A stretch of 44,698 bases of DNA from sequence record OR420686; one strand, given 5' to 3'. This document shows positions 253 through 36,720 of this stretch, piece after piece; position 1 is the stretch's first letter, and every line of letters starts with the position of its first letter. The notes beneath the pieces were generated by a model. That model saw only the letters and a list, made by a program, of their open reading frames with translations. It made no database searches and was not told where the DNA came from. This DNA comes from Shigella phage 1b. The position numbers were made by a program, and so were the translations under genes.

Positions 253-300
253 TGTCTCATCCTCTAAGAAGAGGCCCGCAGATTAGCGGGCCGGGTAATA

Positions 301-831: not shown

Positions 832-1027
832 GGTATATCTCCGATTGGTTAAGTTTAGGTGTCGGCAGTTAACTTCGTCGGTGGCCTTAACATATTGCCT
901 GGTTACGCGTTCTCCCGTTCGGGTAGTGGACCAGGTTATATAATCACGGTTGGGAATCCTGACACTTCGATCCGGCCCCTGCGTTGCCCCTCTCCAGTTT
1001 GCGTCCTGCATCCTGTCGACGGAGTGA

Positions 1028-1056
1028 ATATTAGATTGGTTGCATGAGGGAGTCAA
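1028..1056 (-). promoter_or_regulatory. sigma70-like promoter (TTGACT-N17-TAATAT) reading leftwards toward the 831 gene
   Basis: Hexamers read on the reverse complement; an ATTGGTTGCA motif lies in the spacer. Confidence 0.4.
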
Positions 1057-1065
1057 CAACTAATT

Positions 1066-1101
1066 TAAAAAAAAAGCGCCGAAGCAAAATGCGACGGCGC
1101 T
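1066..1101 (-). terminator. rho-independent terminator-like hairpin with a 9-nt U tract on the minus strand
   Basis: agcgccg...cggcgct stem preceded on the plus strand by A9, so followed by U9 on the minus strand. Confidence 0.4.
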
Positions 1102-1171
1102 AACCAATAAGAGACAATGAGACGGGGATTATTATTACACGCGTGCGCGCCTGTTTCAATATCCAAAGGAT

Positions 1172-1200
1172 TTGACACCTTGCGGTTTTAGGTGTAGTTT
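1172..1200 (+). promoter_or_regulatory. sigma70-like promoter (TTGACA-N17-TAGTTT) for the rightward early operon
   Basis: Perfect -35 hexamer, 17-nt spacer, about 30 nt upstream of the ATG at 1232. Confidence 0.45.
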
Positions 1201-1231
1201 CATTGGTCATTAACCAACTGGGGACAGAACA

Positions 1232-1571: not shown

Positions 1572-3836
1572 ATGAGCTTAATTAAATTCGCTGTAACACG
1601 ACCCGCTAAAAAAGGCGAAAAAGCCAGGGCGGAAAACTTCCAGATGACCACCGAAGAGTTTTTCGAATTTATCAATGACGCGAAAGAAATCTCATCGGTG
1701 CACATCAACAAGACCGAGGATAAAGCCGAGTATGCGCGCCGCAAGCGTAAGGCCGATGGCATCGTAGCGTATACCAGTGACGGCTTACGCCGCAAGACCA
1801 GTGCGGTGGACCGCTCGATCCTGTTCTTCGATATTGACCGTACCGACACCCGCACCCTACGCCGCTGCCGTAAGGCTTTCATCGACGCGGGTCTGGAACA
1901 CGTATTTCACACCACAACCGGCGACCGCCACCCACTGAAAGGCGGCACGCGTTGCGCTCGCTTCCTGGTACTCACTGACAAGCCTGTACCGGCTGAAGAC
2001 CTGGGCCGTGTCCAGTATGCGCTATTACACCAACTTGGGCTGTCAGATGTGGACTTCGACGATTGCACGAAAGACACAAACCGCCTGATGTACCTGCCAC
2101 ACCAGCAGTCTGTAATAAAGTGTCACTACGGCAAACGTGCCCGCGTCCGTCGTCTGCTTCGCCTGGCGGATAAGTTGGGCGTGGAGAAAGAGGAAGTACG
2201 CCGCGAGCTTACCCAGGGCGACGACGCAGTGGCGGACGGGATTCTGGACTGGTGCTTCCAGGCAGGATTCGAGGAGTTATCTTCCGGTCGCGGTTATGAA
2301 GTGCCGTGCCCTAACGAACACCTGCACAGCGGCGAAGGGTCCACCGCCATAATGGTCAAGGATGGTGAGATCCGTTTCAAGTGTATGCACTCCGGCAACG
2401 AGTGTTGCTCGGAGCTGAACAGACACCAGCACCTGGCGCTGCGTCTTATCGGGATTCCGGACCACCTGAACGTCGAGCCACACAATATGTCCCGTAAGCA
2501 AATCGCCGCCATCCTTCCGGGACTGGACGACGAGGAAGTGGAGTCGTGCTATGAACATATTGTTGATGCGGTTGGCGACGGCGAAGAATACGGCGTGTGC
2601 ACCGATGCGGATCTGGATAACGAGCCGGTTGCGCTGTTCAGTAAGCACGACCCGATTATCGAGGGGTTGATTAACTTCAAATCGACCTGGTATATGGCGG
2701 GTGAGTCGAATATCGGTAAGTCTTTCTACGTGCTGGGTCAAATGGGCGCGGTCGCCGCGGGTATTCCGTTCGGCGGCGCGAAGGTCGTCCAGTCTCATTG
2801 CTTCTATTTCGACGCGGAAGGTGGTGAAGCCTCCAACCAGCGCAAAGAAGCATTGCAGATTAAATATGAGCACGACCTCGACAAGCTGCACATTATCGAT
2901 CTGCAATCTCGCGGCTGGGATATCACCAGCAAATCTGGCTTGCGCGAAGTTATCAGCTTTATCAACCGCACGGCTAACGGCGAGCCGGTTGGCCTGGTGG
3001 CGTTCGACTCACTCAACCAGACTGTCGCGCTGCGCTCCGCCGAGGCTAAACCGTTCGACGAGAACAACGCCAGCGATATGGGTGAAGTGGTCAAAGCGCT
3101 GAAGGCCATCGCGGAGAACACAGGCGGCAGTGCGGGCGTCATCCACCACCCGGCGAAAGGTGCAAACGGCAGCAGAACCCCACGCGGGTCCGGCGCGCTG
3201 CATGGTGCTGTCGATTCCGCTTTCTTCCTGGAACAGCCGGACGACAACCAGCCGGGTCAATTGAACCTGTATCACGAAAAGTCACGTAACGGCATCAAGC
3301 AAGCGCCGCGTGGCTTCGTCCTGCTCAAGTGCAAGGTTAAGGTGGATCTCCGCAAGTCAGAGGCGTTCGAGGCGCACCAGTCCACCAGCACCGGGCCAGA
3401 CTTCGGCGACGTGGTTGCCGGTTGGGACGTCAAGCCAATTGCCGCCACACCACGCGACGAGACTCTGTACCTCGTACCGGTCGCCCTGGCGCCGTTCGCC
3501 ATCGAACAGGCGAAGGCAGCAGGCAAGGCCGCGGTTAAGGAAGAGAACACCGCCGGACCGCGCAACGAAAAAGAGAAAGTGCTTTATGCGGCACTGGAAA
3601 AACTGATGGAAGATAACCCGGACCATACTGGATTCAGTAAATCGGCAATTGTCCGCCAGGCTGGGCTGGCAAAAGGTGGCACGTCGACGAAGGCAATCGA
3701 CGATATGGTCGAGCGCGGAGTGATAGGTTTTTACACCGATCCGCACACCGGGGCCATCTATGGGTCGTCTAATTTGGTCATCAAATCGGATATCCCCATC
3801 ACGCTTTCAGCGACCGATGACGATTTAAAAGATTAA
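1572..3836 (+). CDS. primase-polymerase (AEP-like) fused to a RecA-like helicase/ATPase (754 aa)
   Basis: N-terminal ILFFDIDRTD (hhhDhD-type) and FHTTTGDRH motifs; Cys/His zinc-binding cluster CPNEHLHSGEG...CMHSGNECC; Walker A GESNIGKS and Walker B-like LVAFDSLNQ. Confidence 0.75.
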   Translation: MSLIKFAVTRPAKKGEKARAENFQMTTEEFFEFINDAKEISSVHINKTEDKAEYARRKRKADGIVAYTSDGLRRKTSAVDRSILFFDIDRTDTRTLRRCRKAFIDAGLEHVFHTTTGDRHPLKGGTRCARFLVLTDKPVPAEDLGRVQYALLHQLGLSDVDFDDCTKDTNRLMYLPHQQSVIKCHYGKRARVRRLLRLADKLGVEKEEVRRELTQGDDAVADGILDWCFQAGFEELSSGRGYEVPCPNEHLHSGEGSTAIMVKDGEIRFKCMHSGNECCSELNRHQHLALRLIGIPDHLNVEPHNMSRKQIAAILPGLDDEEVESCYEHIVDAVGDGEEYGVCTDADLDNEPVALFSKHDPIIEGLINFKSTWYMAGESNIGKSFYVLGQMGAVAAGIPFGGAKVVQSHCFYFDAEGGEASNQRKEALQIKYEHDLDKLHIIDLQSRGWDITSKSGLREVISFINRTANGEPVGLVAFDSLNQTVALRSAEAKPFDENNASDMGEVVKALKAIAENTGGSAGVIHHPAKGANGSRTPRGSGALHGAVDSAFFLEQPDDNQPGQLNLYHEKSRNGIKQAPRGFVLLKCKVKVDLRKSEAFEAHQSTSTGPDFGDVVAGWDVKPIAATPRDETLYLVPVALAPFAIEQAKAAGKAAVKEENTAGPRNEKEKVLYAALEKLMEDNPDHTGFSKSAIVRQAGLAKGGTSTKAIDDMVERGVIGFYTDPHTGAIYGSSNLVIKSDIPITLSATDDDLKD

Positions 3837-3845
3837 ATTCTGCGC

Positions 3846-3946
3846 GCATTGGTTGCCATTATGGGAATCCCCATATCGGTAAATGATTAAATTTTGCGCG
3901 CATTGGTTGCCATTTTGCGGGCTTTTAGGTGGTCGCATTGGTTGCC
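3846..3946. repeat. three direct copies of GCATTGGTTGCC (3846, 3900, 3935), with an inverted copy at 4218-4229
   Basis: Read directly; the first two copies sit in a ~25 bp direct repeat aaatt(c/t)tgcgcgcattggttgccatt. Confidence 0.7.
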
Positions 3947-3996
3947 GTGTAGTGTAGATATAGTGAATAGTTATGCAATAAAACTGCATAAACTAA

Positions 3997-4098
3997 GCGG
4001 GACAAAAAGCGGGACAAACAAGGAGCGGGACAAAGCGGGACAGCACCCCTGTCCCGCCCCGGATGACGCGGCCTGGCGGGGAGCGGGACAGCGGGACA
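3997..4098. repeat. iteron-like array of GCGGGACA (six direct copies plus one inverted copy forming a palindrome)
   Basis: Copies at about 3997, 4009, 4025, 4035, 4083, 4091; inverted tgtcccgc at 4050. Confidence 0.75.
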
Positions 4099-4103
4099 GC
4101 ACC

Positions 4104-4160
4104 CCAGTCTTTCAGACTAGACGGGGGGTCTGGCACCCCCCTCGTCTGAGACTGCATAAA
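4104..4160. repeat. GC-rich stem-loop element ending in ctgcataa, copy A
   Basis: cagtctttcagactagacgggggg-tctggca-cccccctcgtctgagactgcataa; near-identical copy at 21390-21446. Confidence 0.7.
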
Positions 4161-4313
4161 ATCCAGTATTGCATAACGCACGGCAGCATGATGCGGATTG
4201 CGGTCGTCGATGAACTAGGCAACCAATGCGAGTTGCAGAATGGTGGGTGAGAAATGCAGTTTGCAGTCACAGCAGATAGCGATCAACTTTTTCATGCGCG
4301 TGATTAATATTGG

Positions 4314-4342
4314 TTGCGTTCGGCAAGGCGCCCTGCTATATT
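4314..4342 (+). promoter_or_regulatory. sigma70-like promoter (TTGCGT-N17-TATATT) followed by the conserved block TATATTGGTTGCACACCAAC
   Basis: Hexamers read directly; the same 20-bp block recurs in reverse at about 15527-15546 upstream of the minus-strand gene starting at 15505. Confidence 0.45.
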
Positions 4343-4370
4343 GGTTGCACACCAACATGAGGGCCGAACA

Positions 4371-36538: not shown

Positions 36539-36720
36539 TTTAAATTTTCCTCATTGACTGCTATCGCGAAGCCGCGCGGGGTGAGCGACCTGATTAATTT
36601 GGTGCGGGCTGATTTGCCTCCGAGGCGACTATACTGCTTCGAGTACCCATTTTCAACGAAAACAGGTTTCTTCTCTGGCATACGGAAGCCGCTGCCGTCA
36701 AATAATGACCAGATAATCAT
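36535..36720 (-). CDS. hypothetical protein (61 aa)
   Basis: Small ORF overlapping both neighbours by 4 bp. Confidence 0.4.
   Translation of the reverse strand: MIIWSLFDGSGFRMPEKKPVFVENGYSKQYSRLGGKSARTKLIRSLTPRGFAIAVNEENLK

Follow-up and report, generated by a model that had tools for sequence, protein, structure and literature searches.

Introduction

Why a phage should keep a predicted strong terminator upstream of, rather than behind, the promoter of an early operon is the question raised by the control region of Shigella phage 1b (OR420686). The window, that is the whole 44,698-bp stretch of DNA analysed here, holds the complete genome, in circularly permuted form, of a Dhillonvirus; this group of E. 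coli siphophages is typified by HK578, SSL-2009a, EP23 and SO-1. The original prediction placed a hairpin followed by U9 on the minus strand and proposed that a short RNA, started at a promoter nearby, ends at this site. The hairpin and promoter sit as a module within the divergent early control region (Table 1). The operon to the left, on the minus strand, encodes the acidic protein, small ORFs, an exonuclease, SSB and DNA polymerase and wraps past the start of the window, and to the right the HTH gene is followed by a gene for a 754-aa primase-helicase with an AAA_25 domain. Positions 800-1600 of the window match 175 phage records, mostly at 90-97% identity.

Table 1. Features of the divergent early control region, in coordinates of the window.
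Feature	Position	Strand	Basis or remark
Second leftward terminator-like hairpin	273..292	minus	between leftward genes 1 and 2; scan
Acidic 176-aa protein (leftward gene 1)	831-304	minus	ATG 831-829
Structured 5'-terminal leader RNA, 160 nt	861..1020	minus	covariation, blastn; adjoins the small-RNA unit, not part of it
PL2, leftward early operon promoter	1028..1056	minus	scan 9/12; conserved
Intrinsic terminator (predicted)	1067..1101	minus	fold, T-run rank, covariation, WF5505 annotation
Predicted small RNA, ~57 nt (55-58)	1067..1124	minus	ends deduced from promoter and terminator positions
PL1, sigma-70-type promoter	1131..1159	minus	scan, 10/12 matches with TG; activity presumed
PR, presumed rightward promoter	1171..1199	plus	read from the sequence; putative
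Palindrome TTGGTCATTAACCAA	1203..1217		at ~+1 of presumed PR; putative operator
109-aa HTH protein	1232-1561	plus	Pfam HTH_23/HTH_28

Results and discussion

A terminator-like hairpin downstream of the best promoter match in the genome

Folding of the minus-strand RNA and comparison with shuffled sequences confirmed a hairpin followed by U9 at 1101-1067. The RNA of positions 1101-1075 reads 5'-AGCGCCG-UC-GCA-UUU-UGC-UU-CGGCGCU-3' and is followed by U9 (1075-1067) and AAAUUAG; seven GC-rich pairs make up the outer stem (1101-1095 with 1081-1075) and three pairs the inner one (1092-1090 with 1086-1084). The minimum free energy (MFE) of the structure is -16.2 kcal/mol, which corresponds to z scores of -3.1 to -3.4 relative to dinucleotide shuffles, none of 200 being as good. 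The U9 tract is the only T-run of at least nine on either strand of the 44.7-kb genome, and our own genome scan ranks the site among the four strongest combinations of a hairpin with a T-run. A simple terminator scan skipped this hairpin, whose outer loop exceeds 8 nt. In the record of one relative from GenBank, WF5505, a putative terminator is marked at this hairpin. Read on the plus strand, the stem runs into AACCAAUAAG and no U-tract, so the terminator would work one way only, leftward. The stretch 1101-1067 is a predicted intrinsic terminator, in which a GC-rich stem directly adjoins U9, the geometry is canonical for termination and the pairing has been kept up in evolution (see below). 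It ends 11 nt upstream of the -35 hexamer of PL2 (1056-1028). As had been argued at the outset, a terminator upstream of the leftward promoter cannot be the one that ends the early-left operon.

The promoter originally read as TTGAAA-N16-TAATAA (at about 1130-1160) was recovered by the scan in a slightly different register, as TTGAAA-17-AATAAT at 1159-1131, with 10/12 matches to the consensus. PL1 thereby consists of a -35 hexamer TTGAAA (1159-1154), a GC-rich spacer of 17 nt and an extended -10 element TGT-AATAAT (1139-1131). Re-scoring of the whole genome makes it the top sigma-70 consensus match: only three sites reach at least 10/12, and PL1 alone among them has the TG of an extended -10 element. 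The second-best match, TTGAAA-17-TATAGT at 36628-36656 on the minus strand (10/12), lies inside the leftward operon, of which it could be an internal promoter. The hexamers of PL1 are constant across the relatives aligned.

Transcription from PL1 is predicted to start at ~1124/1123. The best promoter-like site and the most canonical terminator of the genome are co-oriented, with ~35 nt between the -10 element and the hairpin, and the chance of finding a promoter of at least 10/12 within 60 nt upstream of this terminator and in the same orientation is ~0.002 by a rough estimate (~89 kb, both strands). The two signals had been expected to yield a transcript of ~60 nt, and their positions give 55-58 nt. 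In the MFE fold, the predicted RNA opens with an unpaired stretch of ~23 nt (GUCUCAUUGUCUCUUAUUGGUUA, 1123-1101), which leads into the hairpin of the terminator and ends in a U-tail. Features typical of Hfq-type small RNAs can be recognized in this layout, that is a promoter of its own and a terminator with a long U-tail, both at the level of consensus signals only, and a conserved single-stranded seed, 1123-1101 being unpaired in the MFE fold.

Judged by its sequence in the relatives, the region 1067-1124 is non-coding, since a 1-nt deletion in one lineage and the variable length of the T-run shift any reading frame. A 37-aa ORF that runs across the small-RNA gene (1065-1178, minus) was rejected as a gene, its frame being broken by indels in relatives, and so was a 252-aa TTG-start extension in frame with the acidic protein (301-1059, minus), which spans a leader that is absent in some relatives. 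Several GenBank records call a 'hypothetical protein' in these two minus-strand frames. The pattern of indels and a leader that some relatives lack speak against these calls across the leader and the small-RNA gene, which look spurious.

The hairpin is maintained by compensatory changes

The 116-bp module, reckoned from the -35 hexamer of PL1 to that of PL2, is present at full length in 154/154 matching phage records with 85-98% identity, and none was found outside Dhillonvirus. Our comparative set comprised 42 loci from IMG/VR, metagenomes and GenBank, which represent 24 distinct sequences. When the HTH protein was used as an anchor to look for more remote relatives, only close Dhillonviruses came up (15 IMG/VR and 12 metagenome loci). 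In one alignment of 12 distinct sequences, the RNA body (1122-1101) is invariant; a lineage outside this alignment, made up of L016, L032 and L036 (phage Ioannina), carries a 1-nt deletion in it. Variable are the bases just after the -10 element of PL1, the hairpin loop and the length of the T-run (8-13). One metagenome contig (OQVL01056812.1), in which the Illumina adapter ACACTCTTTCCCTACACGACGCTCTTCCGATCT replaces the 3' half of the terminator, is an assembly chimera and not a natural variant.

The original prediction had looked to covariation across related phages and had staked itself on conservation of the hairpin. The hairpin is indeed kept across relatives, and the pairing of its stem is preserved through compensatory changes. 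Of all cells in the stem alignment, 95.8% are paired as compared to 42-53% when the partners are slid against each other, and none of 500 shuffles reaches the observed covariation score. GC pairs are replaced by UA in three sequences and by CG in four, and AU by GU in three. In the Ioannina lineage, the stem AGCGCCG/CGGCGCU has become AUCCCCG/CGGGGAU by two compensatory double changes, and an inner A-U pair has turned into G-U, which pairs in the minus-strand RNA only and leaves a mismatch on the other strand. Independent covariation events are few (three lineages), the relatives being close to one another.

The most divergent relative, L019 from IMG/VR, whose control region has no relative among GenBank phages, carries at the same position an unrelated stem, AAUCCCCAG/CUGGGGAUU, followed by U13 (-20.4 kcal/mol, z -4.0). 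Its upstream promoter-like site is weaker (TTGCGC-17-TATTAT, 8/12) and falls below the scan threshold. Even L019 has retained the motif CUCAUUGUCU, which spans +3/+4 to +12/+13 relative to the predicted start. In phage CHD5UKE2, the module is unchanged although the rightward HTH gene has been replaced by a different gene.

Promoters, palindromes and a second terminator around the module

PL2 reads TTGACT (1056-1051)-17-TAATAT (1033-1028) and is predicted to start transcription at ~1021/1020. The T-run of the terminator and the adjoining AAATTA make up an unbroken stretch of 15 A/T bases at -54 to -40 of PL2, the U-tract itself occupying -54 to -46. Going by its position and A/T content only, the T-run probably doubles as an UP-like tract for PL2. 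On the plus strand, the presumed PR (TTGACA 1171-1176, 17-nt spacer, TAGTTT 1194-1199) has a conserved -35 hexamer and falls below the scan threshold because its -10 hexamer matches at only 3/6 positions. PR and PL1 are arranged back to back, their -35 hexamers being 11 bp apart. The palindrome ATCCAAAGGAT between these two hexamers was considered as an operator and discarded, for it is not conserved.

The palindrome TTGGTCATTAACCAA holds two half-sites of the form (A/G)TTGGT(T/C)A and could be an operator-like site for autoregulation by the adjacent HTH protein. The half-site recurs at 1102-1108 within the small-RNA gene, at 1035-1041 in the spacer of PL2 and at 844-850 ahead of the SD sequence of leftward gene 1. 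TTGGTCATTAACCAA is missing in phage CHD5UKE2, in which an unrelated ORF of 149 aa has taken the place of the HTH gene.

The hairpin at 273-292 (GGCCCGC-6 nt-GCGGGCC with a U-rich tail) is annotated in WF5505 at -17.2. Relatives share its stem but differ in its loop, and in L019 an unrelated hairpin occupies the same place (~720-745). With such a terminator-like hairpin in their path, the downstream replication genes would depend on read-through or partial termination.

A 160-nt structured leader at the 5' end of the leftward transcript

The leader of the leftward operon had been put at ~190 nt, which is correct (~1021 to 832). Its first 160 nt form a structured element in which the closing helix P1 (1020-1013 with 868-861) begins at +1/+2 of PL2 and encloses an invariant core of ~50 nt (995-944) as well as helices P4 (935-930 with 903-898) and P5 (926-912, with a tetraloop). 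The element is single-copy in the window (nhmmer E = 1.4e-50). By blastn, its centre (944-995) shows 92-94% identity with intergenic DNA of T1-like Tempevirinae that bears no annotation, and longer stretches are ~78% identical to Jilinvirus and Murrayvirus phages. In our set, copies outside the window reside in L003 (2409-2584), L004 (2447-2623), L051 and L063-L067. The element is always on the coding strand, the 5' arm of P1 begins 1-4 nt after a predicted promoter start in all four phage groups, and the start codon of an unrelated small protein follows 35-66 nt after the element.

The arms of P1 are wholly different between lineages and still complementary, P4 occurs with eight arm pairs that differ in sequence and are each perfectly complementary (three are from Dhillonvirus itself), and P5 has a covarying 3-bp stem that is mostly capped by a GNRA loop. 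RNAalifold under-called the helices on the raw MAFFT alignment owing to register slips, and therefore anchor-based extraction and a gap-free sub-alignment were used. In the latter, both partners have changed in 8/11 pairs, and pairing holds in 98.3% of cells as compared to ~40% with slid partners, a result that none of 500 shuffles reaches. Phage Sponge carries a partial tandem duplication of ~30 nt (GTCGACAACCAATCTATCGCAAACTGGAGAGACAGG) at the 5' edge of the leader (~1396-1440 of its locus, minus strand), which displaces the 5' arm of P1.

Within Dhillonvirus, the element is optional, and it is unannotated. It is absent in 13 of the related loci fetched, including WF5505, YD-2008.s, L005, L016 and L019, which have a leader of ~50 nt at the identical junction; relatives without the element keep a terminator of the 273-292 type after leftward gene 1. 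Rfam gave no match to the leader, the copy of phage Arya included. Nor did we find a paper with the core sequence in the searchable literature; a catalogue of >10,000 candidate phage RNAs has been compiled (PMC10690425). As the leader precedes unrelated genes, a gene-specific riboswitch is unlikely, and a general role at the level of the transcript fits better, be it put-like antitermination or anti-pausing, stabilization of the 5' end, or release of a stand-alone RNA by processing.

Target search for the predicted small RNA

The small RNA forms predicted duplexes of about -17 kcal/mol with three neighbouring sites of translation initiation: the SD region at leftward gene 1 (UUAACCAAUCGGAGAUA), the start codon of leftward gene 2 and the SD region of the HTH gene. 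Shuffled small RNAs were as good in 4/2000, 49/2000 and 43/2000 cases, respectively (p 0.002-0.025). When the sites of leftward gene 1 and the HTH gene were ranked against the genome, ~2.7% of random windows paired equally well, and the best sites of a genome-wide RNAduplex search were GC-rich coding windows, not ribosome-binding sites. In one lineage the duplex with leftward gene 1 is weaker (-12.7). The RNA of L019 pairs with its own gene-1 site at -17.6, as do 18/2000 shuffles, and other windows of L019 pair better. Comparison of cognate with non-cognate duplexes in three lineages was suggestive in two and not in the third, and the complement of the seed, AGACAATGAG, occurs with up to two mismatches at 28 sites versus 27 expected.

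At the start of leftward gene 2 (250-258, minus), GAGACAAUG offers nine contiguous nucleotides complementary to the 5' motif CAUUGUCUC of the RNA. It is kept in nearly all relatives that have this gene, one of which has GAGATAATG instead, and the probability of such a 9-nt match arising by chance is estimated at ~0.1. Part of the complementarity between RNA and targets stems from AACCAAT, a motif present in 18 copies versus 6 expected, which cluster as CGCATTGGTTGCC in the repeat-rich stretch 3845-4348. Over-represented and clustered in repeats, AACCAAT looks like a DNA-binding site and is probably a protein-binding DNA motif. No target of the predicted RNA emerged as convincing, and anti-RBS pairing is a tentative idea.

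The stretch concerned belongs to the repeat-rich intergenic region after the primase-helicase gene (3826-4350), in which CGCATTGGTTGCC is found in three direct copies and one inverted copy (3845, 3899, 3934, 4218), AGCGGGACA in ~7 copies (3996-4100), and ATATTGGTTGC twice (~4306 and ~4337), overlapping a promoter-like TTGCGT-17-TATATT. The motif ATTGGTTGC of this region also occurs in the PL2 spacer (1035-1043). These repeats may represent an origin or a cluster of operators.

Comparison with known phage RNAs

The oop RNA of phage lambda, 77 nt in length, is transcribed from promoter Po, ends at an intrinsic terminator and is antisense to the 3' end of cII. The RNA predicted here is likewise a short phage RNA that would be made by the host polymerase from its own promoter in the early control region and end at an intrinsic terminator. 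In contrast to oop, there is no gene on the opposite strand of 1067-1124 and no relationship by sequence or Rfam family. Cis-antisense action of the oop or sar type finds no counterpart at the locus: no gene overlaps 1067-1124, and the presumed PR start (~1206) lies to the right and points away. On the plus strand to the left of 1067-1124, no promoter-like site reached the threshold of the scan, which is insensitive to weak promoters.

The lambda PR'-tR' 6S unit resembles our module in that a strong constitutive promoter is closely trailed by a strong terminator upstream of an operon. It differs in that a separate conserved promoter, PL2, stands here between terminator and genes, which moreover serve early replication and are not late genes, and in that neither a protein like Q nor a site for its binding was identified. 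With DicF (53 nt), P22 sar, P1/P7 c4 and P4 CI, the predicted RNA shares a length of ~50-80 nt, a single-stranded seed with a terminator hairpin and U-tail, and phage origin. Unlike these RNAs, it has no Rfam match, C4 included, no E. coli homologue, and a target complementarity that hardly stands out from the genomic background. Rfam searches, run with 4.5 kb and, with lax filters, with 306 nt, gave best scores of 15-22 bits as compared to gathering thresholds of 42-72, and these sub-threshold matches aligned only to generic terminator hairpin portions of unrelated families. Neither the small RNA nor the leader matched in 5,426 complete E. coli genomes by blastn, and both can therefore be regarded as neither captured host sequence nor prophage element. 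A transcript map, RNA-seq or end mapping for Dhillonvirus was not found in the searchable literature. The ~57-nt RNA is a candidate phage small RNA that nothing known matches.

The leader invites comparison with the put elements of phage HK022, antiterminator RNAs whose read-through effect in cis goes by way of the zinc-binding domain of the RNA polymerase beta-prime subunit. HK022 putL lies just downstream of early PL and folds from ~+3 of the transcript, and put RNAs, which measure ~70 nt and have two stem-loops, act in cis on RNA polymerase so that terminators are read through in a long early operon (PMC9378689). The leader, too, folds from +1/+2 of an early promoter, occupies the 5' end of an early transcript and precedes an operon with a terminator after its first gene. 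It differs by its length of ~160 nt, the closing helix, a long three-helix arm and the invariant 50-nt core, and does not show the put format of ~70 nt with two stem-loops. By this comparison of sequences and folds, HK022 put resembles the leader in position only, not in size or architecture.

What the unit may do

The explanation that we consider probable, if by no means assured, is that PL1 and the terminator form an autonomous unit which makes a ~57-nt small RNA, also insulates PL2 and probably boosts PL2 through the UP-like tract. It builds on the observed sequence signals, their rank in the genome, their conservation and the covariation of the stem. Host sigma-70 RNA polymerase would start at PL1 (~1124), transcribe ~57 nt, stop at the hairpin and U9 and free the small RNA. 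We infer from the signals that PL1 fires and that termination is efficient. Most likely, the RNA would function as a regulator in trans whose production sets in within the first minutes of infection; such a regulator is favoured because the layout, with its single-stranded 5' segment, GC-rich terminator hairpin and long U-tail, matches that of enterobacterial Hfq-type RNAs. A regulatory function through base-pairing is plausible. In addition, the terminator would stop PL1 transcription from running into PL2. Since the structured leader closes on the first nucleotides of the PL2 transcript, this transcript has to start precisely at the PL2 start site. Counting against this explanation are the weak promoter-like site of L019 (8/12), the failure of the target search to yield a convincing partner, the share of AACCAAT in the complementarity and the small number of independent covariation events among close relatives.

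It could instead be the act of transcription that matters, with the RNA as a by-product: PL1 and PR would be coupled by supercoiling or by competition for upstream DNA, and the terminator would serve solely to insulate PL2 and its 5'-exact leader. We regard this as unlikely, though deserving of attention. The 11-bp distance between the -35 hexamers of PL1 and PR, the end of the terminator 11 nt before the PL2 -35 hexamer and the closing helix at +1/+2 of the leader are compatible with it, no RNA target stands out, and a terminator directly upstream of a promoter is also present in BUCT618 and Arya. However, the RNA body is invariant bar the 1-nt deletion in one lineage whereas nearby non-signal positions vary, the first 10-nt motif is kept in L019 where everything else is different, and the DNA between the two -35 hexamers is variable. 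An improbable arrangement, in our estimation, is a regulated attenuator, in which PL1 and PL2 would be tandem promoters of the operon and a phage or host factor would permit later read-through, comparable to lambda PR'-tR' and Q. Promoter, short transcript, strong terminator and operon do follow one another on one strand, and the second terminator after leftward gene 1 (273-292) implies some control by read-through. Yet a conserved promoter separates terminator and operon, the leader folds from the 5' end provided by PL2 itself, and in three other phage genera this leader likewise sits behind a promoter of its own; moreover, U9 with a GC-rich stem makes for a strong terminator, and no gene resembling Q or N was noticed in the vicinity of the control region.

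That the locus is an element of DNA only, without termination, appears very improbable. The T-run with AAATTA would then be an UP element of PL2, and the palindrome and the ATTGGTTA motif would be protein-binding or origin sites. The 15 consecutive A/T bases at -54 to -40, the over-represented AACCAAT with its iteron-like repeats at 3845-4348 and a GC-skew minimum near the region, which also follows gene orientation, can be read in this way. But an UP element needs no hairpin, and yet pairing has been kept via compensatory changes and through replacement of the stem in L019, one A-U to G-U change leaves a mismatch on the other strand, and the geometry of hairpin and U-run is canonical for termination. 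Coming back to the autonomous small-RNA unit, a more far-reaching version would have two unannotated functional RNAs at this locus, and we give it a rather small chance. The PL1 small RNA (~57 nt) would tune translation of flanking early genes or of host genes, and the 160-nt leader, passed horizontally between four or more genera of virulent phages of enterobacteria, would front unrelated early genes and act on a conserved host machine, for instance by put-like antitermination or anti-pausing that requires no protein, or by serving RNases or defence systems as a decoy.

Implications for Dhillonviruses

Dhillonviruses are common E. coli phages, of which more than 150 have been sequenced, some are included in the BASEL collection and several have been proposed for therapy. 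Their early regulation is little charted, and the module of PL1 and terminator is unannotated in almost every record. The leader RNA is the more novel and unusual of the two items described here and the larger prize, given its covariation, its 50-nt core, its constant location at the 5' end and the unrelated genes that it precedes in four phage groups. This pattern is in keeping with an RNA whose binding partner in the host is something general, and isolates that naturally have or lack the element could be ready-made controls. As for the ~57-nt RNA, should it be real, it would probably rank first among the phage transcripts in promoter strength and would provide an easy entry into early gene expression of a virulent siphophage that relies on host RNA polymerase alone.
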